From Myxococcales bacterium (GTDB taxonomy: Bacteria; Myxococcota_A; Polyangia; Polyangiales; Polyangiaceae), in NCBI GenBank assembly GCA_016720545.1, contig JADKKK010000003.1:537516-601515 (forward strand): a stretch of 64,000 nt of DNA. Direction: 5' to 3'. Shown piece after piece: positions 1 through 64,000 of the stretch. The position numbers and the translations under genes are program-made. The notes beneath the pieces were generated by a model. The model was not told the origin of the DNA. It searched no databases and saw only the letters and a list, made by a program, of their open reading frames with translations. Position 1 is the first letter of the stretch, and each line of letters opens with the position of its first letter.

Positions 1-422
1 TCGCGGACGCGGAGCGAGGGGACCGTGGCCGCCCGCCTGACGTCGGCGTCGCGGACGAAGGCCTCGAGGTCGACCTCGCGCGAGGGGTTGGCGGTGGCCA
101 GCGCGTGCGCGCGGGCCTCCGCGATCGGCAGGGGCTCGACCAGCACTTCTCCGGTCGGCTGGGTCTTGTCGCGCACACGCTGAGGCACGCCCGCGCCGCC
201 CGAGAAGCGCGCGTTCTTCGCGCCGGCCGAGTCGGGGCGCTCGGGGATCGCGGGCGTGCCTCGCGCGGCGTCGAGCAGCTCGTCGAAGTAGCCGTCCGGC
301 ACCGGCGCCTCCGAGGGATGCCCGCCCTGCAGCAGCGCGGGGCGCCCGGGCGCCGTGTCGAGCAGCTCGCTCGGCAGGTTCTCTTCGCCGGGAAAGGGCT
401 TGGTCTTCATGGGCGGGTTCAT
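1..422 (-). CDS. hypothetical protein (5' part of gene; 3' end lies outside the window)
   Basis: Minus-strand reading frame open to the window edge, with in-frame ATGs at 422 and 410 (MNPPMKTKPFPGEENLPSELLD...). GC3-rich codons. No recognisable domain. Confidence 0.4.
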   Translation of the reverse strand, partial: MNPPMKTKPFPGEENLPSELLDTAPGRPALLQGGHPSEAPVPDGYFDELLDAARGTPAIPERPDSAGAKNARFSGGAGVPQRVRDKTQPTGEVLVEPLPIAEARAHALATANPSREVDLEAFVRDADVRRAATVPSLRVR

Positions 423-6359: not shown

Positions 6360-9218
6360 CTACTCGCCGTCGTGCGAGGCCTGGGCCTCGGTGGCCTCGA
6401 TCTGCGCGAGGACCACGGCGAGCGCGTCTTTCGCGCGGTCGAGCGACGCGCGGTCCGCGTCCCACTTGCTGGCCGCCGCGCGCGCACGCTCGCGCTCCTT
6501 GGAGAGATCGAGCTCGACGGCCGCGAGGCGCGCCAGGGTCGACTCGTGCGACGCCTGCAGGGCCGTGTAGAGCCCGTCGAGCGCGAGGCCGTGCCGGCGC
6601 GCGACCTCGAGCTCGGCGAACACCCCGTCGCGCTCGCGCGCGCGTTCGGCGACGGACTGCTCGAGCGTGGCCGCGCGCCGCGTCTCGGCGTCGAGGCTGG
6701 CCCGCGTCTCGCCGAGCACCCCCTCGAGGAAGGCCACGCGAGAGGTGAGGTCGGCGTTGAGCGACGCGAGCGCGTCGTGCCGCGCGTGGGCCTCGCCGAG
6801 CGCCTCGACGCCGGCCGCGCGCGCCGTCTGCGCGGCCTGGAGCTCCTCGCGGGTGGCCGCGTGCCCGGTCTGCTCAACACGGAGATCTTCGCGGGTGGTC
6901 GCGAGCGAGGTCTGCTCGGCGCGCAGCTCCTCGCGGGTGGTCGCGAGCGAGGTCTGCTCAGCGCGGAGCTGCTCGCGGGTGCTCCCGAGCGAGGCCGCGA
7001 GCCCCTCGAGCTGCTCGGTGAGCTCGGCGCGCGTGTCCTGAAGCGCGGCCTGCTCCCGCGCGAGCGCGCTCGCCGTGTCGTCCCGCGCGGTCGCGAGGTC
7101 GCGGGCGGTTGCCGTGAGGCGCGCGACGTCCTCGGCGTGGGCGGCCTCCGCGACGGCCACGGCCTCGCCGTGGGCGGCTTCGGCGCGGGCCAAAGCCTCC
7201 GCGCGGGCGGCCTCCGCGACGGCCAAGGCCTCGGCGTGGGCGGCTTCGGCGCGGGCCAACGCCTCGGCGTGGCCGGCCTCGGCGCGGGCCAACGCCTCGG
7301 CGCCCGCGGCCTGGCGCTCGGCGAGCGACCGCCCGAGTACGTCCTCGAACATCGCCTCGAGGGAGGCGGCCTGCTCGGTCAGCGCGGCGTCGCGCTCGGC
7401 TTCCTTCTCGACGATCGTCCTCGCGACGTCGGCGGCGGCTTCCCGGCGCGCGGCCTCGAGCTCCGCCACGCGGCGGCCCTCGGCTTGGGCGAGCGCGGTC
7501 TCGTGCGCAGCCTGCGCCTGGAGAGCGGCCGCGGTGGCGGCGTCGATGCGCGCGTCGCGCTCCGCGATCCATGTGTCGCGCACCACGGTGTCGTTCGTGC
7601 GTTCGGCGAGGCGCAGCTCGCGGTCGACCAGCATCGTGTTGAGGGTCTGGATGGCCTCTTCGCGATCGACCAGGGCCCGGCTTCGCTCGGCGATCGTCGC
7701 GTCCCGCTCGGCGATCGTGCCGTCCCGCTCGGCCAGCAAGGCCTCGAGGGAAGTCCGCCGGGTGTCGCCCTCCGCCATCCTGGCGTCGCGTTCCCTGAGG
7801 CTCGCCTCGACCGACGCGTGGGAGGCACGAAGCTCGTTGAGCACCGCCTCCCGGTCCGCGAGCGTCGCCGTCTGCTCCAGCAGGTGGGCGCGCAGCGAGC
7901 CGACGGCGGCGTCGCGCTCGGCGATGGTCGCCTCCGCGGTGGCGAGCGAGCTACGCGCGGCGTCCGCGAGGCGCTTCGCCTCGTCGAGCTCCCACTGCGC
8001 GGTCTGCGCGCTCTCCCGGGCGTCCGAGAGCTCGCGCTCTTTCGCGATCACCCTGTCTTCGAGATCCGCGCTCGCGCGCTCCACGGCGAGGGAGCGATCC
8101 CGGGACTCGGTGATCTCGTGATCTTTCGCGGAGAGATGCTCTCTAAGTGATAGTATCTCCTTGTCTTTTCGGTTCAGTGCCTCGCGCAGATCGAGGAACT
8201 CGCGGCTCGTCGCGGGTGCGACGGCTCGCTGCGGCGCGGCGTTGATGCGACGGCGGAGCTCTTCGACTTCTCGCTGGAGGGCAGCGACCTCGGCGGCCCG
8301 GGGATCGACCGCGGCCATCACCAGCGTCGGGTACACGGGCGGCGGCTGCGAGGCGGCGACGGGGCTGGGCGCTCCAGGAGGTGGCGCGGTCTCGACGAGC
8401 GAGGCCGAGGGCGCGGGAGGTGGCGCGGCGGTGCGCGTCGGGACGGCGGGGCGGTCGAGCTCGTCGAACGCGGGGGGCGGGGCGGGTGGGCGGCCGGTCT
8501 GCGCGATGCGCTCGCGCGCCTCGCCCCGGCCGGGGTCCGGCACGGCGACGGTGTCTGGATTGTCGCTGCCGCTCGGGACCACGACGCTGCTCGGCGGCGA
8601 CGCGCCGTAGGGGACCGGCATGCCTGGCGTCGTCACGGGGCGGGCGGAGAGGGGGTTCTCGCGGTGGCCGGGGATCTCGACGGTCTTGTCGATCGCGTCG
8701 TAGGCGGGCGGGGGCACGGCCAGGGTGATCTCCCCCGAGCCGTGCCTCAGGAGCGGGCGGGCGGCGACCGTGATCTCCCCCTCACTGCTGAGATCGTCGT
8801 CCTGGACGTCGATCGACACGTCGTACGAGTCGTCGCGCGAGTCGCCGAAGTCGACGAAGGTCTCGATGCGTCGGATGAGGGAGTCGACGGCGATAGGCTT
8901 GTGGACGTACTCCTCCGCCCGCGTGCGGAGCTTGCGGTGCTGCTCGAAGGTCTCCTCGCTCGACTCGCTCGAGAGGATGACCAGGGGCACCTCCCGAAAG
9001 ACCATGTCCTTCTTCAGCTTGTTGCAGACCGAGAACCCGTTCATGCGGGGCAGCTCGATCGCCAGGAGGATGAGGTCGGGCTTGAGCTGCGACGCGAGCA
9101 TGAGCCCCGCGTTGCCGTCCTCGACGATCTGAACCGCGCAGCCTTTCGCTTCCAAACCAGCGCGAAGCGCCGCCGCGAAGGCGGGGTCGCCCTCGAACAC
9201 TAGGACGTTGAGGGGCAT
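6360..9218 (-). CDS. pseudo-receiver domain + Pro-rich linker + long coiled-coil protein (FrzS/AglZ-like)
   Basis: N-terminal CheY-like receiver (LVFEGDP...KPDLILLAIELPRMNG...LVILSSESSE...VHKPIAVD) with the phospho-acceptor Asp replaced by Ala (LLAIELP). Then a PAPPPA-rich region and ~600 aa of heptad-rich Ala/Glu/Arg/Leu sequence with internal repeats (AEALARAEAAH.., TREELRAEQTSLATT x2). Confidence 0.8.
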   Translation of the reverse strand: MPLNVLVFEGDPAFAAALRAGLEAKGCAVQIVEDGNAGLMLASQLKPDLILLAIELPRMNGFSVCNKLKKDMVFREVPLVILSSESSEETFEQHRKLRTRAEEYVHKPIAVDSLIRRIETFVDFGDSRDDSYDVSIDVQDDDLSSEGEITVAARPLLRHGSGEITLAVPPPAYDAIDKTVEIPGHRENPLSARPVTTPGMPVPYGASPPSSVVVPSGSDNPDTVAVPDPGRGEARERIAQTGRPPAPPPAFDELDRPAVPTRTAAPPPAPSASLVETAPPPGAPSPVAASQPPPVYPTLVMAAVDPRAAEVAALQREVEELRRRINAAPQRAVAPATSREFLDLREALNRKDKEILSLREHLSAKDHEITESRDRSLAVERASADLEDRVIAKERELSDARESAQTAQWELDEAKRLADAARSSLATAEATIAERDAAVGSLRAHLLEQTATLADREAVLNELRASHASVEASLRERDARMAEGDTRRTSLEALLAERDGTIAERDATIAERSRALVDREEAIQTLNTMLVDRELRLAERTNDTVVRDTWIAERDARIDAATAAALQAQAAHETALAQAEGRRVAELEAARREAAADVARTIVEKEAERDAALTEQAASLEAMFEDVLGRSLAERQAAGAEALARAEAGHAEALARAEAAHAEALAVAEAARAEALARAEAAHGEAVAVAEAAHAEDVARLTATARDLATARDDTASALAREQAALQDTRAELTEQLEGLAASLGSTREQLRAEQTSLATTREELRAEQTSLATTREDLRVEQTGHAATREELQAAQTARAAGVEALGEAHARHDALASLNADLTSRVAFLEGVLGETRASLDAETRRAATLEQSVAERARERDGVFAELEVARRHGLALDGLYTALQASHESTLARLAAVELDLSKERERARAAASKWDADRASLDRAKDALAVVLAQIEATEAQASHDGE
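6840..7340. repeat. intragenic tandem repeats (~42-bp and ~48-bp units) inside the coiled-coil gene
   Basis: cgcgggtggtcgcgagcgaggtctgctcggcgcgcagctcct repeated ~3x at 6880-7010. gcctccgcgacggccaNggcctcgScgtgggcggcttcggcgcgggccaa repeated ~3x at 7141-7320. These encode the coiled-coil repeats. Confidence 0.7.
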
Positions 9219-24816: not shown

Positions 24817-25233
24817 TCAGTCGTGAGAGTGCGCCGCGTCGGTGGCGGCGTCCGCCTGGGGCTTCGCGTCGGTCGCGGCGTCGCCCGAGCCCGCGTCGGC
24901 GGTCACCGGCGGCGCGGCCTTGCAGAGCGCGAGGCAGGAGTCCTTCTTCGCCACGCACGCCTCGTCGCTCGTCGCCGACTCCGCCGCTTCGTGGCACTCG
25001 TGGATCTGCCCGGTGCCCGGATCGACCGGGTGGCAGGCGTCGATGATGGCGAGGCACGTGGCGAACGAGGTCGTCCCGTGGGAGTGATCGTCCGAGCACC
25101 CCGCCCCGACGACGAGGGCCATGGTCGCGAGGGCGGAGGCGAAGAGCAGGGAGCGCAGGGAGCGCAGGGAGCGCAGGGAGCGCAGGGAGCGCAGGGAGCG
25201 CAGGGAGAACGAGGCGAGCGACGGCGACTTCAT
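24817..25233 (-). CDS. Cys/His-rich lipoprotein (putative metal-binding), with SLR-repeat signal peptide
   Basis: MKSPSLASFSLRSLRSLRSLRSLRSLRSLLFASALATMALVVGAGCSDDHSHG... The mature part has 9 Cys and HxH/CH pairs (IDACHP, HECHEAA, DAAHSHD). Confidence 0.5.
   Translation of the reverse strand: MKSPSLASFSLRSLRSLRSLRSLRSLRSLLFASALATMALVVGAGCSDDHSHGTTSFATCLAIIDACHPVDPGTGQIHECHEAAESATSDEACVAKKDSCLALCKAAPPVTADAGSGDAATDAKPQADAATDAAHSHD
25145..25210. repeat. 9-bp tandem repeat (AGCGCAGGG x7) inside the signal-peptide coding region
   Basis: Perfect tandem copies. On the minus strand they encode (SLR)n. Confidence 0.85.
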
Positions 25234-25260: not shown

Positions 25261-25359
25261 CTACCCATGCGACCCGTTGTCGCACCATGTTCCTGCCGTG
25301 CTCCCTTCGGTCGCGTGGCCTAGGCACGCCGCTCGCCTGCGGCTCGCTTGCATGTTCAT
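25261..25359 (-). promoter_or_regulatory. copy A of conserved leader element / mini-ORF (MNMQASRRRAACLGHATEGSTAGTWCDNGSHG*)
   Basis: About 60 nt are near-identical to copy C: ATGAACATGCAAGCGAGCC-GCAGGCGAGCGGCGTGCCTAGGCCACGCGACCGAAGGGAG. It ends 28 nt upstream of the lipoprotein ATG at 25233. Confidence 0.5.
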
Positions 25360-25416
25360 GCAACTTGCATGCAGTTCTACTGGGGAGCCCCGAGTGGTTG
25401 CGTGGCGACGGACGCC

Positions 25417-31180: not shown

Positions 31181-33124
31181 ATGGGCTCCTCGACGTCGCG
31201 ACGCGCCGCCCGTGCGGTCGCCGTGGTCGGCGCGCTCGCCGCGTGTGCGGCGTGTGCGGCGTGCGGCAGAGGCGCGCGCGACGCACGGCCGGTGTACGCG
31301 ACGGCCAGCACGATGGAGGCGACGCTCGCCTTCGAGGAGCTGCGCGACGCGTGGGAGCGGCGCGACGTAGGCGCCGACCGTCAGCGCGAGGCGCTCGAGC
31401 GGCACCTCAAGCGCTTCCCGGGGGACGGGACGGCGACCACGGCGCAGCTCTACCTCGCGTTCCTGCTCATGCAGGCGGGCGAATATTACAAGGCCGACGC
31501 GCTGCTCGCGCTCCTCGAGTCGAACCCCAGGGCCCTGCGCGCCGGCCCGGAGCGCGACATGTTCGCCGTGGCGCGGGCCAAGTCGCTGCGGCACCGCGGC
31601 GCCCACCCGCAGGCGCTCGCGCTGCTCCAGCCGCTCGCCGGCAAGGCCGTCGACGAGACCCTCCGCGGCATCTTCCTCGAAGAGCTCTGCCTCGCGGCGC
31701 TCGGCGCTGGCGAGGACTACGAGGCGATCGGCTACATGGACGCCTGGCTGCGCGGGGTGTCCGAGGACAAGCGCGTCGCGAGCCGCGCGAAGATCGCAGC
31801 CGGCCTCGAGGGCATGCCGGCCGGCGTGCTCCAGGCCACCTACCGCGCCATGCGCACGGCCCAGCAGACCGGCTACAGCGCGGAGATCCAGCGCCTGGTC
31901 GCGATGAGGGTCGCCGCGATCGTCGTCCAGAACGAGGACGCGACGCTCGCGCGATGGCTCCTCGACGTGACGCCCGGGGGATCCGACGCGCTCGGCGACT
32001 CGGGCCCCACGATCCTCGAGCTCGCCGCGAGCCGACGAGGCCTCCGCGAGGTGCAGGGCCGCACCGTCGGCCTCTTGCTCTCCACGGGCGACGCGGAGCG
32101 CCGAGAGGCCGCCGCCGCCGTGCTCCGCGGGGTCTCTTGGGCCCTCGAGCTCCCGAAGGCGCCGGCGGCGCGCACCGACCCGCTCCGCCTCGTGGTGCGG
32201 ACCGACGCGAGCGAGGGCAAGGGGTTGGCCTCCGACCTGGCGATGGAGGAGCTCTTCGGCGAGGGCGCCGGGGTGGTGCTCGCCGGCCTCGATGGGCGCT
32301 CGGCCGACCACGCGCTCAAGTGGGGCGAGGACCACGGCCTCCCGGTCGTTCTCCTGCATCCCCCCGCGCGCCAGCCAGTCCCCACCCAGGCGGGCTACGT
32401 GATCGGCGAAGCGCGGGCGACGCAGGCCGCCATGCTCGCGCGCGCGCTGGCCCCGCTCGGCGATCGGCGGGTGCAGCTGCTCACCACCTCGCGGGGGAAG
32501 GGCCGCGACGCGCTCGAGGCGGCCCTGGCGCTCGGCGGACTCGGCAGGGCACGTGAGACGGTCGACTGCGACGCCGAGGCGCCGCGCCCGGGCATGCCGC
32601 GATTCCCCTTCGAGGCCTGGGCGAAGGAGCGCGTCCGCACCTTCGTGGTCGCGGGCGCGAGGGAGTGCCTGACCGACACGCTGGCCGAAATCAAGCTCGC
32701 GACGCGTGGCGCCGCCGCCGGTCCAAGACCGCTCGTCGGCGTGGTGCTCGACACCGAGCCGCCCGCAGAGCCCTCCCCTGCCCCCGCGCCGCGGGTGTTC
32801 GCCGTCAGCGCGGGCATCCTGCCGCTCGAGCGGGACCGCGTCGCCGCCCTTGGTGATCCGGAGGTCGCTGCATATTACAACGAATTCGGTCAGGTGCCTG
32901 GGTGGTGGGCCGCGCTCGGGCGCGACGCGGGGATCCTCGCGCGCCAGGCCGTGAGCGTGCTGCCCTCGAACACCACGGCAGACCCCAAGGCGGTCGCCCA
33001 GCGCCACGCGATCGTCGCCGCCGCGCTCGGCCGAGCGCAGGCGCCTTTGTGGACCACCGAGGCCAGCGGCTTCGCGGGCCAGCGCGTGCTCTCGCGCTCA
33101 CTGCGGGTCGTGGAGCTGAAGTAG
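31181..33124 (+). CDS. secreted hypothetical protein
   Basis: Signal MGSSTSRRAARAVAVVGALAACAACAACG. 647 aa, Ala/Leu-rich, with TPR-like helical content likely. The start is trimmed from 30992. Divergent from sdhC. Confidence 0.55.
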   Translation: MGSSTSRRAARAVAVVGALAACAACAACGRGARDARPVYATASTMEATLAFEELRDAWERRDVGADRQREALERHLKRFPGDGTATTAQLYLAFLLMQAGEYYKADALLALLESNPRALRAGPERDMFAVARAKSLRHRGAHPQALALLQPLAGKAVDETLRGIFLEELCLAALGAGEDYEAIGYMDAWLRGVSEDKRVASRAKIAAGLEGMPAGVLQATYRAMRTAQQTGYSAEIQRLVAMRVAAIVVQNEDATLARWLLDVTPGGSDALGDSGPTILELAASRRGLREVQGRTVGLLLSTGDAERREAAAAVLRGVSWALELPKAPAARTDPLRLVVRTDASEGKGLASDLAMEELFGEGAGVVLAGLDGRSADHALKWGEDHGLPVVLLHPPARQPVPTQAGYVIGEARATQAAMLARALAPLGDRRVQLLTTSRGKGRDALEAALALGGLGRARETVDCDAEAPRPGMPRFPFEAWAKERVRTFVVAGARECLTDTLAEIKLATRGAAAGPRPLVGVVLDTEPPAEPSPAPAPRVFAVSAGILPLERDRVAALGDPEVAAYYNEFGQVPGWWAALGRDAGILARQAVSVLPSNTTADPKAVAQRHAIVAAALGRAQAPLWTTEASGFAGQRVLSRSLRVVELK

Positions 33125-33183
33125 ACGAGCTGACGTAGACGAGCTGACGTAGACGAGCTGACGTAGACGAGCTGACGTAGACG
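33121..33183. repeat. 14-bp tandem repeat GTAGACGAGCTGAC x4.6
   Basis: Perfect copies spanning the stop codon of the upstream gene. Every unit contains TAG and TGA. Confidence 0.85.
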
Positions 33184-33216
33184 AGGCGCGATCCTGGGGC
33201 CCAAGCCGTGACTGCG

Positions 33217-35630: not shown

Positions 35631-37087
35631 CGGACCGGCACCGTGTCTGGGCCGCTCTTCTCGACGGGCGCCCCGGACGCGACGCCGAGCGCGCCCGGCT
35701 TCAGCACCACGGCCCTCACCCCCGAGGCCGCGTGGACGACCACGCGCCCGTCTTTGCCCTCGAGGTCGACGAACGCGTCACTCGCGCCGGCACGCTCGAG
35801 GCGCACGCCGTAGGTCGAGGTGTCCTCCGCGCGCACGCTGCGAAAGGTGACGCGGGCGGGGTGCTCGGGCGCCACGGCGACGGCCGCGCGGCGCACCACC
35901 TCCGCCGCGAAGCGCTCGACGAGGCGCCCTTCGTGGCCCACCCCGGGAGCCCGATCGAACCGTACGGCGAACCCGCGCGCGCGGAGCGCTTGGTCGAGCA
36001 GCTCGCTCTGGCGGATGGGCGAGACCCGATCGGCCTCCCCGTGCACGAGCCAGATCGGCACGTGCCGCGCGTTGTCGATCACGTCGAGCGCGTTCACCGC
36101 GTGCGCGCCGGCCTCGTCGTGGAGGATCGAGCGCACGTACGTGGACAGATCGTAGCGCGCGTCGCCGAAGAAGCTCGTGACGCTGGCGAACCTGTCGGGG
36201 CGGTGGAGGCCGATGGTGGTCGCCCCGGCGCCGCCCATCGACGCGCCCCAGATCGACACGCGCCGCGGATCGACCGGCAGCGCGTGACCGAGGGCCTCGA
36301 GCGCGCGCATCACCTCGGCCTCGGCCTCCGCGACGTAGAGAGAGTTGCCGAGCCCCGAGGGGTGGAGCAGCACCACGTCGAGGCGCTCCGCCTCTTGGAC
36401 CAAATGCGTGTACTGTGCATACGTCCAGATCCCGCCGTTCCACGGGTGGACGCCCACGAGGACGCTCGCGGGTCGAGCGCGGTCGTGGGCCTTGGGCACG
36501 TACACGGCCGCCACGCCGCCCCCGCGCGCCGTCGACGGACTAGGGAACGCGAGGCTGGAGAATCCCCACGGCCCGCGCCCGGGCTCGCCCGCGCGCGGCG
36601 CCTCGCCACACGCGACGCGCCGCTCGTACGGCGACACCACGACGTCGATCGCCACGTCGACCCGCCCGCCGGGCAGCGGCGCGACGAACGGCCCGGACGC
36701 CGCGGTAGGGCGCGTCGACGCCGCGTCCCCTGGCGCGCGGACCTCACGCCCGGCCACGCGTACGGCGCGCCGGCCGCCGCACCACGGCACGCGGAGGGCG
36801 CGGCCCTCGGCCGTGAACGAGAGGGTCACGAGGCCAGGCTCGAGGCGCTTGACGGCCAGCTCGTCGAACACGACGTTCTCCGTGCGCTTTCCGCGCGCCA
36901 GCACCATGTGGGCGATCGCAGGCCCGTCCACCGTCGCGTGCTCGAGCGGATCGCCGGGGCTCGGCTCGGCGTCGGCGCGCGCGGCCGCAGGCGCCACCAG
37001 GGCACCCGCGAGGGCGCAGATCGCGACCCGCGCCGCGCGGGCCGCACGATCCGCGCGCGGGAGGCGCGTTCGCCGAGAGCCGGTCAC
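35621..37087 (-). CDS. alpha/beta hydrolase (S9 prolyl-oligopeptidase/esterase-like), secreted
   Basis: GTG at 37087 gives the signal RAARAARVAICALAGALVAPAAARA. Nucleophile elbow IWGASMGGAGAT, and VHGEADRVSP (catalytic Asp region). The track's upstream extension is junk. Confidence 0.65.
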   Translation of the reverse strand: MTGSRRTRLPRADRAARAARVAICALAGALVAPAAARADAEPSPGDPLEHATVDGPAIAHMVLARGKRTENVVFDELAVKRLEPGLVTLSFTAEGRALRVPWCGGRRAVRVAGREVRAPGDAASTRPTAASGPFVAPLPGGRVDVAIDVVVSPYERRVACGEAPRAGEPGRGPWGFSSLAFPSPSTARGGGVAAVYVPKAHDRARPASVLVGVHPWNGGIWTYAQYTHLVQEAERLDVVLLHPSGLGNSLYVAEAEAEVMRALEALGHALPVDPRRVSIWGASMGGAGATTIGLHRPDRFASVTSFFGDARYDLSTYVRSILHDEAGAHAVNALDVIDNARHVPIWLVHGEADRVSPIRQSELLDQALRARGFAVRFDRAPGVGHEGRLVERFAAEVVRRAAVAVAPEHPARVTFRSVRAEDTSTYGVRLERAGASDAFVDLEGKDGRVVVHAASGVRAVVLKPGALGVASGAPVEKSGPDTVPVRWE

Positions 37088-37554
37088 CGCGGCTCTTCCT
37101 CGCGCCGCGACCTCAGGTAGGGCAAGACCTTGGCGCGGAACGCGTCGGTCCACGCGGTGGAGGTCCGCGTGGCGACGTCGATGCGCACGAGCGCGCGCGT
37201 GCCCACCGCGAAGTCGACGTCCTCGTCCATGGGCATCACGCAGAAGCCGAAGACGAGGCTCGAGCGCCCGAGCCGCTCGATCCAGATGCGCACGCGGACT
37301 TCGCCGGTCCCCACCACCGGACGCAGGTACTCGATGTGGTTTTCCCGCACGAGGTGCTGGGCGTCGACGTTCTCCTGCATGTCGCGCCAGCTGCCCCAGC
37401 CCAGGCGCTGCCAGAACGAGCCGATCGTCCGCTCGATGAGGAGCAAATAACGTGCGTTGTGCAATATCTGGAACGCGTCGAGATCGTCGAAGTAGATGCC
37501 GTGGACGTTCTCGTGGAAGCGGACGCCGGAGGAGAGGGTGGTCACCTCCCACAC
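37084..37554 (-). CDS. acyl-CoA thioesterase, 4HBT/YbgC hotdog family
   Basis: FHENVHGIYFDDLDAFQILHNARYLLLIERT is typical of the YbgC/4HBT family. The start is taken at the GTG at 37554. The track's upstream extension runs through the conserved leader element. Confidence 0.6.
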   Translation of the reverse strand: MWEVTTLSSGVRFHENVHGIYFDDLDAFQILHNARYLLLIERTIGSFWQRLGWGSWRDMQENVDAQHLVRENHIEYLRPVVGTGEVRVRIWIERLGRSSLVFGFCVMPMDEDVDFAVGTRALVRIDVATRTSTAWTDAFRAKVLPYLRSRREEEPR

Positions 37555-37604
37555 GATAGCGGAAGTGGAGGCCGACCGTGCCCCCGGGGACCGTTTCGTC
37601 GGTT

Positions 37605-37643
37605 CTAGCCGCGCCGCTCGCCCGGGCTCGCTTGCATGTTCAT
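37605..37643 (-). promoter_or_regulatory. copy B of conserved leader element / mini-ORF (MNMQASPGERRG*)
   Basis: ATGAACATGCAAGCGAGCCCGGGCGAGCGGCGCGGCTAG... is shared with the copies at 25261-25359 and 40846-40914. It lies 51 nt upstream of the thioesterase start, in the same orientation as that gene. Confidence 0.5.
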
Positions 37644-37758
37644 GGCGAGACCTCGCCTTCGGCTCGGGCACGCCATCGACCTTGGTTCGCCCCTTCGGGG
37701 CTCACTTTCAGGTTCCTCTTGTCAACCCTGGAGAAAGAGTCCTAAACCCGCATCCACC

Positions 37759-38944: not shown

Positions 38945-39439
38945 CTAGATCATCTCGAAGTACCGCGAGTGGATCGCCACGGTCACGAGGACCGCCACCT
39001 CGCGCGGCACACCGTCGGCCGCCTCCACCACGAAGCGATCCCGCACGTGCGTGAGGCCCTCGCGCTTCTTCACCTCGATGGCCACCTTGCCGGCGGCGTC
39101 GGCGCACCTGAAGTCGTACTCGAGCGCGAGCACGCCCGCGTCGGCGGTGTAGGTCTCGCTTCCCACCTTGAGCGCGAGGGTCTTCTTGAACGCGATCGAC
39201 GGGAAGGTCACGCTCGCGACCTCCTTGCGCTCGCCGTCGAGCACGTGGAACGCGGTCTTGTTGAAGTTGCCCTCCAGGCTCGCGAGCTCCTTGTCGCTCC
39301 CGTCGACGATGGCGAACCGCGGCGTGAGGCTCATCGGCGCGCCGCGCACGGTGAGCGCCACGTCTTCTTTGCCCTTTTCGCGCACGTCGTACGTCGTCGC
39401 GACGGCCGCCAAGCGCTGAACAACCTCGTACTGACCCAT
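38945..39439 (-). CDS. LURP-one-related / tubby-like (DUF567) family protein
   Basis: 164 aa. Composition and spacing resemble the LOR/DUF567 family by eye. The assignment is tentative. Confidence 0.45.
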   Translation of the reverse strand: MGQYEVVQRLAAVATTYDVREKGKEDVALTVRGAPMSLTPRFAIVDGSDKELASLEGNFNKTAFHVLDGERKEVASVTFPSIAFKKTLALKVGSETYTADAGVLALEYDFRCADAAGKVAIEVKKREGLTHVRDRFVVEAADGVPREVAVLVTVAIHSRYFEMI

Positions 39440-39453
39440 GGTGGTACCTTTCT

Positions 39454-39525
39454 CGTGTCGCTCGTGTCGCTCGTGTCGCTCGTGTCGCTCGTGTCGCTCG
39501 TGTCGCTCGTGTCGCTCGTGTCGCT
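39454..39525. repeat. 9-bp tandem repeat CTCGTGTCG x8 (CGACACGAG on the minus strand), immediately upstream of a start codon
   Basis: Eight perfect copies. They end 15 nt upstream of the ATG at 39439, in the divergent intergenic region shared with livK. Confidence 0.9.
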
Positions 39526-39663
39526 CGTCGTAGGGGTTCGCGGCGACGCGTGACCGCTTTGCGGCGGCGCTCGCGCACGGTCACGAGCAGCGTACGGGCG
39601 CCGAGGCGCCGCGGGGAACAAATCTCCACGGTTTCGTGGTACCCGTCCATGCCTGGAGGGATC

Positions 39664-40818
39664 ATGCTCACTCGCCGAAGGTTCACGCTCTCGCTCGCCA
39701 CGCTCGGCCTCGTGGTCGTCGCCGCCGCCGGCTCCACCGGCTGCGAGAAAAAGAGCGACGATCTCGTGGTCGGCGCGTTCCTCTCGCTGTCCGGCAGCGA
39801 CTCCACCTTCGGCACCGACACCCGCGACGGCATCGAGCTCGCGCTCGACGAGACCAACAAGGCCGGCGGCGTGAAGGGCAAGAAGGTCAAGGTCCTTTAC
39901 GAGGACGACAAGTCTCTCCCGCAAGAGGCGTCGAACAAGGTCCGGCAGCTCATCGACCGCGACAACGTGCTCGCGATCCTCGGCGAGGTGGCGTCGAGCC
40001 GCACGATGGCCGGCGGTCTCATCGCGAACACGAAGAAGGTGCCGCTCGTCACGCCTTCGTCCACGGCGGTCGAGGTCACGAAGGACCGCGAGTACGTCTT
40101 CCGCGTGTGCTTCACCGACGACCAGCAGGGCGACGTCGCGGCGCGCTTCGTGTTCGAGACCCTCAAGAAGAAGAAGGTCGGCCTCTTCTTCGCCGCCCAA
40201 GACAACTACTCGTCCGGCCTGGCGGCCTCTTTCAAGGAGCGCTTCGTGAAGCTCGGCGGCCAAATCGTCGTCGACAAGGGGTTTCAGAAGGGCGAGACGA
40301 ACTTCACGACCTACCTCTCCGAGCTGAAGTCGAAGGACCCGGAGGTCATCTTCGTACCTGTATACTACAACGACATGGTGCAGATCGCGCGGCAGGCCAA
40401 GCAGGCCGGCATCCCCGGCACCACGTTCGTCGGCGGCGACGGCTGGGACTCGGCGGAGCTCACGGAGGGTGCGGGCGCGGAGCTCGAGGGCGCCTACTTC
40501 ACGAACCACTACGCGCCAGACGTACCGTGGAAGAACTCGGCGGCCTTCGTGACCGCGTTCAAGGCCCGCTTCAACCGCGAGCCGACGAGCCTCGCGGCCC
40601 AGGGCTACGACGCCGCGAAGCTCCTCTTCGACGCCATCAAGCGCGCGCCCGAGACCAACCGCGAGGCCATCAAGGTGGCGCTCGCCGACACGAAGAACTT
40701 CGAGGGGGCCACCGGGCAGCTCACGATCGACAAGAACCACAACGCGAACAAGCCCATCGTCGTGGTCCAGATCAAAGGCAAGAAGTTCAAGTTCACGACC
40801 CAGCTCATGAGCCAGTAG
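39664..40818 (+). CDS. livK: branched-chain amino acid ABC transporter substrate-binding lipoprotein
   Basis: RBS GGAGGG, then ATG at 39664. Signal and lipobox LVVVAAAGSTGC. LivJ/LivK (periplasmic-binding type I) family similarity throughout. Confidence 0.85.
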   Translation: MLTRRRFTLSLATLGLVVVAAAGSTGCEKKSDDLVVGAFLSLSGSDSTFGTDTRDGIELALDETNKAGGVKGKKVKVLYEDDKSLPQEASNKVRQLIDRDNVLAILGEVASSRTMAGGLIANTKKVPLVTPSSTAVEVTKDREYVFRVCFTDDQQGDVAARFVFETLKKKKVGLFFAAQDNYSSGLAASFKERFVKLGGQIVVDKGFQKGETNFTTYLSELKSKDPEVIFVPVYYNDMVQIARQAKQAGIPGTTFVGGDGWDSAELTEGAGAELEGAYFTNHYAPDVPWKNSAAFVTAFKARFNREPTSLAAQGYDAAKLLFDAIKRAPETNREAIKVALADTKNFEGATGQLTIDKNHNANKPIVVVQIKGKKFKFTTQLMSQ

Positions 40819-40845
40819 GCGGAAGGCTCGGGGCCCGGTCACACG

Positions 40846-40914
40846 ATGAACATGCAAGCGAGCCTCCGGCGAGCGGCGTGCCTATGCCACGCGACCGAAG
40901 GGAGGAAGGCATGA
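40846..40914 (+). promoter_or_regulatory. copy C of conserved leader element / mini-ORF (MNMQASLRRAACLCHATEGRKA*)
   Basis: ATGAACATGCAAGCGAGCCTCCGGCGAGCGGCGTGCCTATGCCACGCGACCGAAGGGAGGAAGGCATGA. The mini-ORF stop overlaps the livH ATG (ATGA). GAAGGGAGG doubles as the livH ribosome-binding site. Confidence 0.5.
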
Positions 40915-41816
40915 AGATCCTCGAAGCGCTCGTCACCGGGCTCACGCAGGGCGCGATGATCGCGCTCGTCGCGCTCGGGTACACGATGGTGTACGGCGTG
41001 CTGAAGCTCATCAACTTCGCCCACAGCGAGGTCTTCATGATGGGCGCGTACATTGGCGTCTTCGTGCTCGGCGCCGTGGGCATCTCGAACCCCTTGTTCG
41101 CTGGCGCCTGCGCGACCGTGGTCGCCATGATCGGCGCGTCCCTCATCGGCATCACCGTCGAGCGGGTCGCCTACCGGCCGCTCCGCGGGCGGGGCAAGGG
41201 CGCGCTCGTGCGCATCACGCCGCTCGTGACGGCGCTCGGCGTCTCGGTGCTCCTCCAGAACGCCGCGCAGCTCTTCTTCTCGGCGCGGTTCCGGTCGTAC
41301 CCGCAGCTCATCGCCGGCAGCGTGCAGGTGCCGGGGGTAGGCCCGGTCGGCACGTCCCGCGTGCTCATCCTCGTGGTCGCCGTGGCGGTCATGGTGGGCC
41401 TCGAGCTCATCGTGAAGAAGACGTGGTTCGGCAAGGCGATGCGCGCGCTCTCCTCCAACGAAGAGGCCGCGCGCCTCATGGGCGTGCACACCTCCCGCGT
41501 CATCTCGACCACCTTCGCGCTCGGCTCGTCGCTCGCGGCGCTCGGCGCGGTCCTCTACTGCCTCGATCAGTCGCAAGCCTACCCCACCATGGGCGTCGTC
41601 ATCGGCACGCGCGCGTTCGTGGCCGCGGTGCTCGGCGGCATCGGCAGCATCCCCGGGGCCATGCTCGGCGGGCTGCTCCTCGGCGTGGTCGGCGAGCTCG
41701 TGAAGCTCACCGATTACTCGGGCGGCGTCGACGTGCTCGTGTTCGTCGTGCTCATCGCCGTGCTGCTCGTCCGCCCCGCGGGCCTGTTGGGCTCGACGCG
41801 CGCCGAAAAAGTGTAG
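40911..41816 (+). CDS. livH: branched-chain amino acid ABC transporter permease
   Basis: MKILEALVTGLTQGAMIALVALGYTMVYGVLKLINFAHSE is a typical LivH N-terminus. Eight hydrophobic segments. No livM/G/F follows. Confidence 0.85.
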   Translation: MKILEALVTGLTQGAMIALVALGYTMVYGVLKLINFAHSEVFMMGAYIGVFVLGAVGISNPLFAGACATVVAMIGASLIGITVERVAYRPLRGRGKGALVRITPLVTALGVSVLLQNAAQLFFSARFRSYPQLIAGSVQVPGVGPVGTSRVLILVVAVAVMVGLELIVKKTWFGKAMRALSSNEEAARLMGVHTSRVISTTFALGSSLAALGAVLYCLDQSQAYPTMGVVIGTRAFVAAVLGGIGSIPGAMLGGLLLGVVGELVKLTDYSGGVDVLVFVVLIAVLLVRPAGLLGSTRAEKV

Positions 41817-45218: not shown

Positions 45219-47189
45219 CTAGGGTTCGACGGGTGCCGCGGGCTTGGGCGCTGGCTCGACAGGCTTGGGCGCCGGCTCGGCGGGCTTGGGCTCGACCGGC
45301 TTGGGCTCGGCGGGCTTGGGCTCGACCGGCTTGGGCTCGACCGGCTTGGGCGCCGCGGTCTCCGCGGGCTTCGGCTCCGCGGGCTTCGGCTCGGCGGGCT
45401 CGGCGGGCTTCGGCTCCGCGGGCTTCGGCTCGACGGGCGCGGCGGGCTTCGGCTCGGCGGGCTTGGGCGCGACAGGCGCGACCGCAGGCTTCGGCGCGAC
45501 AGGCGCCGAAGGTGCGACGACCGGGACGGCCGCGGACGCCGCGGCGCTCGCGGGTGCTGCAGGGGCCGCGTCGACGGCGGGAGCCGCGTCCTCTCCGGTC
45601 GCAGCGCTGGCGCTGGCGGAGGGTGCAGCAGCCGCCGAGGGCGCCTCGGACGGGGCGGCGGACGGCAGGGGCGCGACGCTCGCCGAGGTCGCCGGGGGCG
45701 CCCCGCCGAACAGGTGCGCCTTGTAGGCGAAGATGCCACCGCCGGCGAGGAGCGCGACCGCGACGACGGCCCCGATGAGCGCCCCACCCCCGCGCTTCTT
45801 GGGCTCCGGGAGCGGCATCACCTGCTGGCCCGCGCTGGCCATCGCGAGCTCGGCGACCGGCGGGGGCGCGGGGGTCGAGGCCATCTGCAGGGGCACGACC
45901 TGCGACGCGCGAGGCTCCGCAGGCTCGTACGCGGGCACGGCGGGCGCTGCGCCCGGGAGCGACGCCCGCTCGGCAGGCTCCGCGCCACGGATGGACGCGA
46001 GGAGGTCGTCGGTGCCGCCGAGCGACGGCGCCGGTCCGCTCGGGAGGCCGCCCGCCACCGTGTACAGCGGGTTGGCCTGCACCTCGTCCATGGAGCCGCC
46101 GGCCTCGCGGAGGGCCTCCTCGAGGAGCTCGGCGGCCTGCTTCATCACCGTGGGCTCGGCGCGCTCGAGGGCGTTCTGCGGCTTGCGCGGGCCATCCACC
46201 GGGAACATCGGCTTGGCCGAAACCGGCGGATCGTCTGGGAAGAGCTTCGACCGATCGAGCGGCAGGGTCGATGCGAAGTCGGTGCCCACGATGGGGCGCG
46301 TGGCCTCGAGCTCGCGCAGCTCTGCTTTCTTGGCGGCCTCGGCCGCGGCGAAATCGGGGAGCGCATCGCGGCTCAGCGGCAGGGTGGACGAGAACCCTTG
46401 GGATTCGTCAGGTCCCGCCTTCGGCAGCGCGATCATCGTGGGCGGATCGGGGTCGAACGGCGACGGGTACCCGACGGGCTCGCGCTCACGCGGCTGCTCC
46501 AGGTTGGCGAAGAACTCGTCGTCGGAGGAGCCAGGGGTGTCGGTGCCGAACGTGAGCGCGCCGAAGGGCTGCGTGGGCGCGGCCACGGGGACGGGCATCT
46601 CGGAGGTCTTGTTGAGTTGGGACGCGAGCCCGAGCGGCACTCCAGCCCGACGCCGCGACTCGACCGGTGCCTCGTCGGCCGGTGGAGGCGGAGGCGGCAG
46701 CGGCTCGGCCGCGGGGCTGGGATCCCAGGGGACCGTGCCTTTCAGGGCGGCGCGCGCGGGGGGAGGTGCGGGGGTGACCGCGCGCGGCGGCGGCGCGGAA
46801 GGCTTCGGCAAGGGCGCGGCGGCCGTCGGCTCGGCCGGCGGGGCGGCCAGCGCGGCGGTCACGAGGCGATCGATGGTCTGCCGCGAGACATCGTCGATCT
46901 TGATGAACTTGACGCCCATGCCAGCGGGGCGCTCCGCCGCGGCCTGGGTCGGCTCGCGCTTCCACACGACCCGCCCGACACCCGTGAGGGAGGACGACTC
47001 GCCCGCGACGATGATCTCGAGCTTCAGGAGGGTGCCCGGAGCGAAAGGGGTCTGGGTCTTGACGAACACCCCACCGACGCTGACGTCGAGCGACTGGTTG
47101 TCGATGAACTCGTCGTTGGTCGCGCTCTTGTACCGGACCGTGAGGCCGGGGACGCGCGCGCGCTTGTCCTTACGCGTATCGGAGGTCAT
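45219..47189 (-). CDS. PilZ-domain protein with long Pro/Ala-rich low-complexity region, TM segment and PAEPK-repeat tail
   Basis: N-terminal PilZ signature RKDKRARV...DVSVGGVF. TM segment ALIGAVVAVALLAGGGIFAY. C-terminal (PKPAEPKPVEP)n repeats encoded by 15-bp DNA repeats at 45230-45480. The start is trimmed to the ATG at 47189. Confidence 0.7.
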   Translation of the reverse strand: MTSDTRKDKRARVPGLTVRYKSATNDEFIDNQSLDVSVGGVFVKTQTPFAPGTLLKLEIIVAGESSSLTGVGRVVWKREPTQAAAERPAGMGVKFIKIDDVSRQTIDRLVTAALAAPPAEPTAAAPLPKPSAPPPRAVTPAPPPARAALKGTVPWDPSPAAEPLPPPPPPADEAPVESRRRAGVPLGLASQLNKTSEMPVPVAAPTQPFGALTFGTDTPGSSDDEFFANLEQPREREPVGYPSPFDPDPPTMIALPKAGPDESQGFSSTLPLSRDALPDFAAAEAAKKAELRELEATRPIVGTDFASTLPLDRSKLFPDDPPVSAKPMFPVDGPRKPQNALERAEPTVMKQAAELLEEALREAGGSMDEVQANPLYTVAGGLPSGPAPSLGGTDDLLASIRGAEPAERASLPGAAPAVPAYEPAEPRASQVVPLQMASTPAPPPVAELAMASAGQQVMPLPEPKKRGGGALIGAVVAVALLAGGGIFAYKAHLFGGAPPATSASVAPLPSAAPSEAPSAAAAPSASASAATGEDAAPAVDAAPAAPASAAASAAVPVVAPSAPVAPKPAVAPVAPKPAEPKPAAPVEPKPAEPKPAEPAEPKPAEPKPAETAAPKPVEPKPVEPKPAEPKPVEPKPAEPAPKPVEPAPKPAAPVEP

Positions 47190-49943: not shown

Positions 49944-50810
49944 ATGCGACGCCGCGAGAGGCTCACGTGGACTGCGCGCTCCGTCGCTCCCCTCGCGATC
50001 GGGCTCGTCGCCTGCGCCAGCGCGGCGGCAGATCCGCCCGTGGGGCCGGGGCCGGCCGCCGCCGACGCGGGCGCGGCCCTCGTCGACGCTGGCGAGGTCC
50101 CGGGCTCTGAGCCGGGCGCGATGGACGCGGCGGTCGACGCGGCGGTCGACGCGGCGGTCGACGCGCGGGCCGGCTGCGGCCCCTTCGCGAGCGCGCGGGA
50201 CCGCTTCGTTTGCGCGGGTAACGGGACCAGCCGCGGGAAGTGCCCCGACGGCGTCTCTCGCCAGGAGGAGGCGTGCCCGCGCGGCTGCCTGCGGGCACCC
50301 TCGGGAAAAGATGCAGTTTGCATGGGAACGACCACGACCTGGTCGTGCACGGGGTCGGCGGCGACGGAGAAGGCGCAGAGCGGGGACTACATCGTCACGG
50401 CGTTCGGCTGCTGGGTCGACGCGGCCGGCGGCAAGCACGGCGACGCGGGTGACAACTGCGTGCCGAGCTGCCTCGGCGACCTCCGGCGCCTCGGGCTCTG
50501 CGCGGCGACGGACGCCGGCCGAACCTGCGAGGAGAAGCTCACCTGGTTCGTGGCCGACGCTGGCCGCTTCGGCTGCGGGGCGCGCGTGCGAGTAGAGAAC
50601 CCAGCGAACGGCAAGGCCGTCGTCGCCGTGTCGATCGACCTCGGGCCGGCCTGCAGCGTCGAGCGCGTGGCGCAGGGGGCGGTGCTCGACGCGAGCGGTC
50701 GCGTGAGCCGCGAGCTCTTCGGCAGCGATCGCGGGGTCGTCGATCGGTCGCTCGTGCACGTGATCGAGGTCGACGCGTCCACGCCGCTGGGCCCCGCGGG
50801 CCCTCGCTGA
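49944..50810 (+). CDS. Cys-rich lipoprotein with RlpA-like double-psi beta-barrel (DPBB)-like C-terminus
   Basis: Signal MRRRERLTWTARSVAPLAIGLVACASAAA. The C-terminus FGCGARVRVENPANGKAVVAVSIDLGP...VHVIEV resembles the RlpA/expansin-like DPBB fold. The coordinate follows the track's frame; the printed line 49921 appears one nt short. Confidence 0.45.
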   Translation: MRRRERLTWTARSVAPLAIGLVACASAAADPPVGPGPAAADAGAALVDAGEVPGSEPGAMDAAVDAAVDAAVDARAGCGPFASARDRFVCAGNGTSRGKCPDGVSRQEEACPRGCLRAPSGKDAVCMGTTTTWSCTGSAATEKAQSGDYIVTAFGCWVDAAGGKHGDAGDNCVPSCLGDLRRLGLCAATDAGRTCEEKLTWFVADAGRFGCGARVRVENPANGKAVVAVSIDLGPACSVERVAQGAVLDASGRVSRELFGSDRGVVDRSLVHVIEVDASTPLGPAGPR

Positions 50811-53815: not shown

Positions 53816-54087
53816 GCTTCAGTGTCCGGCGGGGCGGTACGCGGCGGCCGAGGTCCGCGGCCGCTCGGCGCGGCGAGCGCCCGGGCGCCACGGCTTGGGT
53901 TGGTTAGCACACCTGCGAGACTTCATTCTCGCAGTGGTGGTAGTTGGCCGCGGGAGCGGACAAGCCGGAGGGTGAATCGGCCAGCTTTGTGGCCGAGAGG
54001 GGCGCCGCGCCCCCTACGGGACAGGGCTAGCACTACTGCCGTTCGCGCAGCGAACTGCGTAGCGAGAGGGAACCTCTCGCAGTACTG

Positions 54088-63596: not shown

Positions 63597-63860
63597 GGGG
63601 GGGGGGGTCCCCCCCGGGGGGGGGGGGGCCGCCGCCCCCCCCCCGGGGGGGGGGGGGGGGGGCCGCGGGGGGGGGGGGGGGGGGGTGTGCGGGGGCGGGG
63701 GGGGGGCGCCCGGGGGGGCCACCCCCCCCCCCCCCCGCCCCCGGGGGGGGCGCCCCCCCCCCCCCGGGGGGGGGGGGGGGGGGGGGGGGGGGCGGCCCCG
63801 CCCCCGGGGGGGGGCCCCCCCCCCCCCCCCCGGCCCCGGAGGGGCGACCCGGGCCGGGAG
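63597..63860. repeat. ~265-bp block composed almost entirely of alternating long poly-G and poly-C runs, flanked by 10-bp inverted repeats
   Basis: Runs such as G11, C7, G13, C11, G20, G23 and C16, with very few A/T, then an A7 tract. Flanks GCTAGTCCCC (63587-63596) and GGGGACTAGC (63875-63884). It begins ~20 nt upstream of the S51 peptidase start codon. Confidence 0.8.
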
Positions 63861-64000
63861 AAAAAAAGACTCCAGGGGACTAGCAAATCAGCCGCTGCCA
63901 CGAGCGCGGCGACGGCGATCCGAGAACCATGCCCGCGAGGCGACCACCGAGCGCAGAGCCCCTCCCATGACCCTCAAAGTGAGCAACGAAGGGGCGGCGG

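Follow-up and report, generated by a model that had tools for sequence, protein, structure and literature searches.

What is one short sequence, opening with its own ATG, doing in front of three unrelated genes within 64 kb of a myxobacterial genome? The question is raised by contig JADKKK010000003.1 of Myxococcales bacterium GCA_016720545.1 (Polyangiaceae), of which the 64,000 nt from position 537,516 to 601,515, hereafter the window, were analysed. An earlier note on this DNA had described three copies of a leader element with a mini-open reading frame (mini-ORF) and had offered three readings of it: a leader-peptide regulatory cassette, a conserved cis-regulatory RNA, or a small repetitive element with a translation-initiation region of its own. 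The third of these is supported by the way in which the element abuts start codons and by a mini-ORF layout that recurs across loci, and we argue, with a probability that we would put at roughly 0.7, that the element is a start-codon-targeting repeat similar in kind to the interspersed repetitive units of mycobacteria (MIRUs), whose host gene would be expressed through coupling of termination to re-initiation. The observations behind this proposal concern the anatomy of the unit, its exact position and orientation, filled and empty sites, copy-number polymorphism, a frame rule and covariation in a hairpin.

That three copies exist, and that chance is ruled out as their origin, is straightforward to establish. 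The 19-mer that opens the element, ATGAACATGCAAGCGAGCC, matches the window exactly three times, at 25341-25359 (minus strand, copy A), 37625-37643 (minus strand, copy B) and 40846-40864 (plus strand, copy C), where the chance expectation is 0 and where 100 shuffles yielded 0 matches. Copies A and C align without a gap over 73 nt at 90% identity (25287-25359 versus 40846-40918), and all three copies are intergenic and, just as the earlier note had it, co-oriented with their downstream gene. Its boundaries for the element, in contrast, have to be redrawn: the unit measures 65 nt and occupies 25295-25359 (minus strand) in copy A and 40846-40910 (plus strand) in copy C, instead of 25261-25359 and 40846-40914, and the spacer between GAGCC and GGCGAG, given as 3 or 4 nt, is 3 nt in both A and C, copy B having a 1-nt deletion at that place. 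The ATG ascribed to every copy is present in all three, and a 22-codon mini-ORF with TGA over the gene's ATG is found only in C.

Copy C (72.6 bits against a profile built from the units) is the only intact copy in the window, A and B being decayed, and the same profile run over the 64-kb window detected no copy beyond these three. It sits between the stop codon of a livK-like gene (40818) and the ATG of livH (40911). Its mini-ORF (40846..40914, plus strand) has 22 codons, MNMQASLRRAACLCHATEGRKA, and closes on a TGA that overlaps the livH ATG, the ATGA at 40911-40914 being both stop and start. The gene downstream was correctly named as livH, a branched-chain amino acid ABC permease (40911..41816, plus strand; Pfam PF02653); its start codon follows copy C directly, its homologues begin at the same methionine, and the GC content of its third codon positions in frame 0 (GC3) is 0.97. 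The livK-like gene upstream encodes a periplasmic binding protein (39664..40818, plus strand; PF13458), its start being taken from 384-aa orthologues in an ORF that is open from 39550.

Beyond the window, copies were sought by pattern, each scan being run once, and diverged copies are under-sampled. The genome search proposed in the earlier note, carried out with the exact 19-mer on one genome per species, returned eight contigs, of which six belong to three metagenome-assembled genomes (MAGs) of Polyangiaceae/Myxococcales; the other two, from a gammaproteobacterial MAG (locus L003) and from Massilia (L006), show no similarity beyond the 19-mer and were set aside as chance matches. A degenerate scan of metagenomes (AACATGCRAGCGAGCC-N2-4-GGCGA) added 16 further contigs, three of which carry the window's own loci in a near-identical strain (L009 for copy A, L011 and L015 for copy C). 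About 20 independent, unrelated loci were obtained in this way from Polyangiaceae MAGs and metagenomes. Viral contigs scanned with the degenerate core gave no match and therefore no phage link. The search patterns fix the 5' 27 nt of the unit and, likewise, alignment columns 10-33, which are thus conserved by construction.

The unit that emerges from the alignment (family 1) is 65 nt long, ATGAACATGCAAGCGAGCC-N3-GGCGAGCGGCGTGCCTATGCCACGCGACCGAAGGGAG-N5-C, and of 20 units aligned, 18 are of precisely that length. From its first codon onward it forms a 22-codon ORF, and the TGA that follows consists of the final two bases of the gene's or next unit's start codon plus the A behind them (ATGA); a strong Shine-Dalgarno (SD) sequence, GAAGGGAGG, sits 5-6 nt upstream of that start codon. 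What had been noticed in copy C, namely a mini-ORF stop overlapping the livH ATG and a conserved 3' end serving as its ribosome-binding site, is the rule of the family, the layout of 22 codons and a TGA over the start being found also in L001, L002, L005, L008, L012 and L016-L024. A 74-nt sister unit (family 2) has a homologous head, RTGAACCTNAAAGTGAGCCCCGAAGGGGCG, and a distinct 3' half ending in ...GAAGGCGAGGTGTCGCC; its ORF of 25 codons has the same kind of ending, and both unit lengths, 65 and 74, equal 2 modulo 3. Directly upstream of copy B lies a family-2 unit (37644..37717, minus strand), which shares the 5' head GAAC..AAGTGAGCC and has the other 3' half; family 2 likewise precedes family-1 units at L008, L010, L017 and L019 and follows one at L014. 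Both families are specific to a group of uncultured Polyangiaceae, and we consider it probable that they represent short, non-autonomous, dispersed and tandemly amplifying repeats. Family-2 units were seen in two further settings: after the purC-purE stop codon, where the TGA overlaps the unit's GTG (L008 1986-2088 into window 1-40), and at the end of the window, which cuts off a family-2-like head, ATGACCCTCAAAGTGAGCAACGAAGGGGCGG (63967..64000, plus strand). A rearranged unit in front of a nuoJ-like gene (L007 440-552) consists of an intact head, two copies of CATGAACCGCT and then CGAACGAAGGACCTCCC-GTGAAC; its ending is still on a GTGA start.

A lack of positional bias toward 5' leaders had been named beforehand as the outcome that would speak against a leader element. 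The bias is in fact absolute and exact to the nucleotide. At 16 of the 17 distinct loci with a terminal full-length unit, the base after nt 65 opens the start codon of a gene, which is ATG at 11 loci (including the purC locus in both L004 and L008), TTG at three and GTG at one; the seventeenth unit, in L018, is followed by ATG and only 37 codons to the contig end, with a GC3 of 0.68 and no gene signature. The hexamer following terminal units begins with NTGA in 17/17 and with NTGAA in 13/17. Frame-0 GC3 of the downstream genes is 0.88-0.97 at 14 of the 16 loci and 0.78-0.79 in the lower-GC L002 and L005, and canonical N-termini are found for LivH (MKILEAL), PurC-PurE, PilN (MIRVNLLP), a resistance-nodulation-division (RND) pump (MNVSAIAIKRPVF) and an epimerase (MKVLVTGGAGFIG). 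Besides livH, purC-purE, pilN and the pump and epimerase genes, the downstream genes encode a metallo-beta-lactamase (MBL) hydrolase, zinc-ribbon proteins and lipoproteins. Every unit has the orientation of its downstream gene, and many copies occupy promoter-proximal leaders without an upstream cistron. LivH homologues of 340 aa were considered as N-terminal extensions through a unit, an idea that we rejected, the extra residues being real transmembrane segments.

Close relatives possess empty sites at three of the loci. Between livK and livH, the spacer measures 19, 39 and 17 nt in relatives that share 97%, 95% and 88% LivH identity, respectively; it contains no unit there, and the starts read ATGAAG, ATGAGA and ATGAGG. 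The window has the same flanks plus the unit. Between tatC and the MBL hydrolase gene, relatives at 90%, 88% and 83% identity show a plain 4-nt ATGA in which the tatC stop and the MBL start overlap, whereas the filled allele L001 reads ...gac ATGA ACATGC...CACGGC ATGA cgcacg, so that insertion has made two ATGA overlaps from one. The pilM-pilN junction of L005 also has an ATGA overlap at both ends, with three units in between. Empty alleles of the RND pump locus start with ATGAAC (L037, 92%) and ATGAAT (L038, 81%); in the filled allele L024, ATGAAC stands at the 5' end of the unit and TTGAAC after it. This last allele belongs to a subfamily with the 3' end GGGAGGGAC(T/G)C, all three members of which (L020, L023 and L024) are followed by TTG at three unrelated genes. 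Another allele of the pump locus (L036, 92%; 388-406) contains no unit and carries TGA-AGGGAGAGACGCT-TTGAAT right after the upstream stop codon, which corresponds to the unit's SD, spacer and TTG with one mismatch and one extra T relative to the 3' end of L023. It appears to be the footprint of a deletion that left the gene with the initiation site of the element in place of the host's own. NTGA(A) is present at both ends of a unit and once in the empty sites, and its 3' copy can differ (ATG versus TTG) and follows the subfamily, which fits an element-borne copy better than a true target duplication. From these alleles we infer that the downstream start codon may travel with the element, that the host's original start may now open the mini-ORF, and that partial deletion could leave the element's ribosome-binding site and start codon behind as the gene's new initiation site.

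Units of identical length simply inherit their frame from the founder, and irregular arrays are therefore the informative cases for any rule of frame. There are four. In the purH-purC spacer of L004, a 66-nt unit (with an extra A) and a truncated unit of 32 nt add up to 98 nt and one ORF of 33 codons that ends on the purC ATGA. The same spacer in L014 holds a 65-nt unit, in which the same extra A is offset by a 1-nt deletion, and a 74-nt family-2 unit, giving two ORFs of which the second ends on the purC ATGA. In L008, which comprises 2,088 nt of contig DAORJJ010000001.1 from the Polyangiaceae MAG AMR_MDS_5554, the first 107 nt of the purH-purC array form one ORF of 36 codons ending on ATGA, and the chain of ORFs, with a later 74+65+65 nt, reaches the purC ATGA. 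Finally, the pilM-pilN array of L005 (81+65+65) begins with an 81-nt unit that has an internal 13-nt duplication and reads through in frame into the next unit (49 codons), and its last unit ends on the pilN ATGA. The ORF chain is therefore kept in 4/4 irregular arrays, against a chance of 1/3 for each (~(1/3)^4), and this, together with two unit lengths that are both 2 modulo 3, may be taken as evidence, from few independent cases, of selection for ending the ORF on the start codon. Selection probably does not act on the peptide as a product, and it is the frame with its end point that is kept: outside the seeded columns, the entropy at the three codon positions is 0.74/0.40/0.69, with no third-position excess of variation.

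Copy number differs between genomes. Of three genomes, one has 1.5 units in the purH-purC spacer, one 1+1 and one no fewer than 6+1, and at the copy B locus the window and L015 have identical flanks and differ by a 73-nt indel between two GAGCC heads, the window having a family-2 and a family-1 unit and L015 one hybrid unit. Contig ends and the run of N in L008 (223-323) lie inside repeat arrays, which probably break short-read assemblies.

The covariation test that the earlier note had suggested bears on the 3' half of the unit. The RNAalifold consensus of 20 units contains one 5' and one 3' hairpin, and the former falls in columns fixed by the search patterns and is thus uninformative. In the latter (columns 44-74; 40883..40913, plus strand, in copy C), an internal UAUGCC pairs with GGCAUG, which includes the downstream start codon (that of livH in copy C), and the SD (40897-40905 in copy C) lies in the upper stem and loop, C53, C56 and C57 pairing with G65, G63 and G62 of the SD around a GAAG loop. 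Pairing is satisfied in 96.1% of cells, as opposed to 25-40% in slid-register controls. Compensatory changes occur at four pairs: 46-72 (UA 12, AU 3), 48-70 (CG 13, GC 3, AU 2), 49-69 (CG 15, GC 4) and 52-66 (CG 10, GC 5, GU 3). Doubly changed cells number 21 against 7.3 +/- 1.9 in shuffles (0/500 reaching the observed value). AU at 46-72 is found in exactly the TTG subfamily, where an A replaces U opposite the first position of the start codon. Furthermore, 37 cells are G-U pairs, and as these would read A-C on the other strand, the structure is one of the sense strand, in the simplest case of the mRNA. When five sequence variants are folded, each adopts this hairpin with -10 to -14 kcal/mol (z -2.2 to -3.3), and the sequence of its loop and 3' stem is nearly invariant across species. 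The Rfam search, likewise suggested before, gave no match for the full window at the gathering score or for copy C (40780-40960) at E<=1. The reading as a conserved cis-regulatory RNA therefore survives in part: the compensatory hairpin over SD and start speaks for it, and the missing Rfam match and the unrelated downstream genes do not.

These observations can be accommodated in a single, still conditional scheme. The element would land in sense orientation on an NTGA at a gene start, often where stop and start overlap as ATGA within an operon. The former start codon of the host, together with whatever drives it (its own SD or the stop of an upstream cistron), would become the start of the 22-codon mini-ORF, while the 3' end of the element would supply the SD, a new start codon and the A that follows. 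Because start and A come with the element, the mini-ORF would stop on a UGA that overlaps the new start (AUGA, an overlap of -4). The hairpin would hold the anti-start UAUGCC on GGCAUG and tie up part of the SD, and independent initiation would thereby be damped. A ribosome translating the mini-ORF would open the hairpin, terminate on the UGA and re-initiate at the overlapping AUG, so that the host gene would stay expressed and coupled to the upstream signals and the insertion would be nearly neutral. As the same NTGAAC stands at both ends, slippage or unequal exchange could amplify the units and so give rise to chains of coupled mini-ORFs, and old copies would decay, like A and B in the window, or shrink to a new ribosome-binding site.

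Several points weigh against this scheme. First, translation of the mini-ORF and its coupling are deduced from sequence, and the mechanism of the element's movement is deduced as well. We identified neither a transposase nor any other mobilising function, candidate enzymes not having been examined; what we call insertion could partly be recombination between existing copies. Second, the first codon of the mini-ORF is GCG, GCG and GAG in the promoter-proximal copies L013, L018 and L022; an in-frame ATG remains at codon 3, but lies inside the search pattern and is conserved by construction. Third, a 22-codon open frame is not rare at 70%+ GC, only the four irregular arrays are independent, and two of the three copies in the window (A and B) lack the coupled layout. 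Fourth, the covariation events are few, perhaps 3-5 independent ones clustered in subfamilies, and the shuffle control ignores the relatedness of the units. Finally, the copy numbers were read from MAGs and metagenomes assembled from short reads, and such assemblies perform poorly with tandem repeats.

A more far-reaching version can be formulated, which we offer tentatively and would not bet on. In it, the repeat would be an actively mobile "natural bicistronic coupler" that recognises NTGA at gene starts and stop/start overlaps; SD, start codon and an anti-SD/anti-start hairpin would come with it, and host translation would in consequence depend strictly on the 22-codon rider ORF; the element would have arisen independently of the mycobacterial MIRUs, would spread in a manner so far unknown among bacterial repeats (RNA-mediated insertion, say, or single-strand insertion oriented by the transcript), and would occasionally donate a ribosome-binding site and start, as L036 might illustrate.

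How do other explanations fare? The one that survives best, although we regard it as unlikely, holds that the repeat is selfish or neutral, that only its SD and start codon are functional, and that the mini-ORF is untranslated or irrelevant, the open frame and the TGA overlap being by-products of GC content and of the NTGA target. It would account readily for the non-start first codon at three loci, for the absence of a third-position excess of variation, for a copy A without overlap and a copy B without frame, and for an SD at ideal spacing, which could drive initiation alone. It is hard to reconcile with irregular arrays (66+32, 65+74, 81+65+65, 107 nt etc.) that always restore the frame to the TGA/start overlap, with two families of different length that are both 2 modulo 3, and with a hairpin over SD and AUG that would be harmful unless something opened it.

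Considerably less plausible is a function like that of repetitive extragenic palindromes (REPs) and bacterial interspersed mosaic elements (BIMEs), in which the unit would be an intergenic hairpin that protects the upstream mRNA (giving, for instance, high livK and low livH) and is spread by a REP-associated tyrosine transposase (RAYT). The place of copy C between genes for a binding protein and a permease is the classical REP position, and the units do contain GC-rich hairpins with GNA loops (GCC-GCA-GGC; GCCCC-GAA-GGGGC). Units are, however, never arranged in inverted pairs, and all of them lie in sense at the 5' ends of genes. Within the window, A and C alone form an inverted pair; they stand on opposite strands at a distance of 15 kb, each in keeping with its own gene. 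The many promoter-proximal copies have no upstream cistron to protect, and the exact abutment on start codons and the ORF chain are without counterpart in REPs. No RAYT gene came to light, although no search was aimed at one.

Marginally more doubtful still is the proposal that the unit is an operator for a trans-acting translational regulator (CsrA-like, with a GGA/GGGAG loop) or a thermosensor, the repeat having spread a regulon. A covarying hairpin that sequesters SD and start codon, with loop and 3' stem nearly invariant across species, is what such an operator would look like. The conserved loop, however, is simply a strong SD, the downstream genes have no common function, no Rfam family matches, and neither tandem multiplication nor presence and absence in close relatives would be expected of a regulon operator.

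The leader-peptide cassette of the earlier note, that is, an attenuator or regulatory upstream ORF sensing an amino acid or antibiotic by stalling on MNMQASRRRAACL..., can draw on a short in-frame ORF conserved before genes and on an amino-acid transporter behind copy C, but is highly improbable and already largely refuted: a terminator/antiterminator pair is absent, the ORF stop lying over the start codon without space for a terminator, the peptide is free to vary (by the codon-position entropies given above) and may begin with GCG or GAG, the downstream genes are unrelated, and the units also multiply in tandem and insert into ATGA overlaps between cistrons. Two further candidates were tried and rejected, a miniature inverted-repeat transposable element (MITE), since terminal inverted repeats are lacking (set against the reverse-complemented right 25 nt, the left 25 nt match over at most 5 nt, CATGC, a length equalled in 337/1000 shuffles), and a riboswitch, for which there is neither an Rfam match nor a pathway common to the downstream genes.

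The remaining two copies in the window deserve a closer description. Copy A (25295..25359, minus strand; 66.8 bits) is a full-length 65-nt unit that is uncoupled: AGG stands in the start-codon position after the unit, the ATG of the gene follows 61 nt further on, and the ORF of the copy runs for 32 codons to a TAG 30 nt short of that ATG (25233). The gene encodes a Cys/His-rich putative lipoprotein (24817..25233, minus strand) without Pfam match, and the metagenome contig L009 carries a locus identical to this one. In the N-terminal region of the lipoprotein, a 9-nt tandem repeat, (AGCGCAGGG)n at 25143-25216, encodes (SLR)n and is likely a second hypervariable feature of the locus. Just upstream of copy A (25360-25395, minus strand), the head motif is partly repeated and, with CATGCAA and TTGCATG as paired arms, forms a small palindrome (GAACTGCATGCAAGTTGCATGAACATGCAAG) that occurs only at this locus. 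Decayed units flanking copy A were considered and rejected, as local alignments to the consensus were no better than in about 10% of shuffles.

Copy B (37592..37643, minus strand) has a 1-nt deletion after GAGCC, a degenerate SD and a broken frame, its mini-ORF stopping after 12 codons. It had been thought to keep only its first ~35 nt; the alignment to the unit in fact extends from 37643 to 37592, model positions 1-56, although weakly (26.5 bits). The gene downstream (37087..37552, minus strand, start uncertain) had been called a thioesterase, for which we found no Pfam match at E<=0.001, the same being true of the two lipoproteins that flank copy A; Pfam does support an SdhC-like gene divergent from copy B. 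A scan for tRNA and tmRNA found none.

The window contains other repeats as well. A 9-nt tandem repeat, CTCGTGTCG, occurs about 10 times at 39443-39541, in the divergent intergenic region between a LOR-family gene (38945-39439, minus strand) and the livK-like gene, and a 14-nt repeat, GAGCTGACGTAGAC, about 5 times at 33113-33185. In-register tandem repeats of 42, 33, 15 and 12 nt at 6825-7345, 45258-45516 and 50109-50172 are probably coding repeats (coiled-coil or low-complexity protein segments). At 52581-55428, three colinear segments recur at a spacing of 1676-1685 nt with 71-74% identity, which suggests two tandem paralogous genes. Lastly, some 250 nt at 63597-63850, between a gene end and an A-rich stretch, consist almost only of runs of G and C (G11, C7, G13 ... 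C17) with many mutual inverted repeats; such a stretch may be an artefact of sequencing or assembly (poly-G), or else a genuine spacer of extremely low complexity.

How, then, does the repeat compare with known systems? Like the Rickettsia palindromic elements (RPEs) and the Correia elements of Neisseria, it is a small, non-autonomous repeat, which would be tolerated for preserving or supplying expression signals. RPEs insert in frame inside ORFs and are translated within the protein, and Correia elements provide promoters as well as RNase III sites and show both a TA duplication and terminal inverted repeats; our unit, in contrast, has no terminal inverted repeats and sits at the gene start rather than inside an ORF. 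With the REPs and BIMEs of enterobacteria and pseudomonads it shares being a short, GC-rich intergenic repeat that often lies in operons and between genes for a binding protein and a permease, and that can cluster. REPs, being imperfect palindromes, occur in either orientation and often as inverted pairs, have their place at gene 3' ends, have no ORF or SD and are linked to RAYTs, whereas the unit is strictly in sense orientation, at the start codon, with a conserved ORF chain.

The unit also resembles synthetic couplers. In a bicistronic design (BCD), a leader cistron holds the SD of the second cistron and its stop overlaps the second start, so that the ribosome melts local structure and downstream expression becomes insensitive to context. 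The unit would work in much the same way, the difference being that BCD couplers (mentioned in PMC12548453, ref. 78) are engineered and the unit is natural, repeated and apparently mobile; it may be their natural counterpart.

The closest comparison is with MIRUs, which have long been used as typing markers, whose biology has hardly been studied and which had been regarded as confined to a few mycobacteria. Searches of the literature turned up no description of a myxobacterial repeat of the present kind or of "MIRU-like" elements elsewhere. As set out in a passage of PMC12548453 that cites Supply 1997 (Mol Microbiol 26:991), MIRUs insert at start codons and contain an internal ORF coupled at a -4 spacing; units of 77 and 53 bp lie in tandem between senX3 and regX3 (PMC4213456), and reports of MIRUs concern no organisms other than the M. 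tuberculosis complex and M. leprae (PMC4213456). The present repeat, too, is made of short units dispersed over about 20 loci, in direct tandem arrays of variable copy number, inserted at start codons in the sense of the gene. As in that passage on MIRUs, a small ORF ends over the downstream start (-4) and its start can overlap an upstream stop, overlaps being present at both ends in L001 and L005, and the presumed effect on expression would be minimal through translational coupling. Even the lengths agree in being 2 modulo 3, at 77 and 53 bp for MIRUs and at 65 and 74 nt for the present units. Host (Myxococcota, Polyangiaceae, versus Mycobacterium), unit lengths and sequence all differ. We know of no record for MIRUs of a covarying SD/start hairpin, of a start codon that travels with the element, or of a footprint that leaves the element's ribosome-binding site behind. 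Since the host phylum is a different one and the comparison is of architecture and not of sequence, we would file the repeat apart from MIRUs in the strict sense, as what appears to be a new family of the MIRU kind.

Taken together, a second and apparently unrelated family with MIRU architecture, now in Myxococcota, suggests a recurrent evolutionary solution by which a repeat could invade the most sensitive nucleotide of a gene by rebuilding a coupled initiation site there. With its filled, empty and footprint alleles, its two lengths under one frame rule and its covarying hairpin over SD and AUG, the family provides clean material that should be useful for finding the mobilising function. For annotation, its units are a source of spurious N-terminal extensions and of breaks in short-read assemblies.

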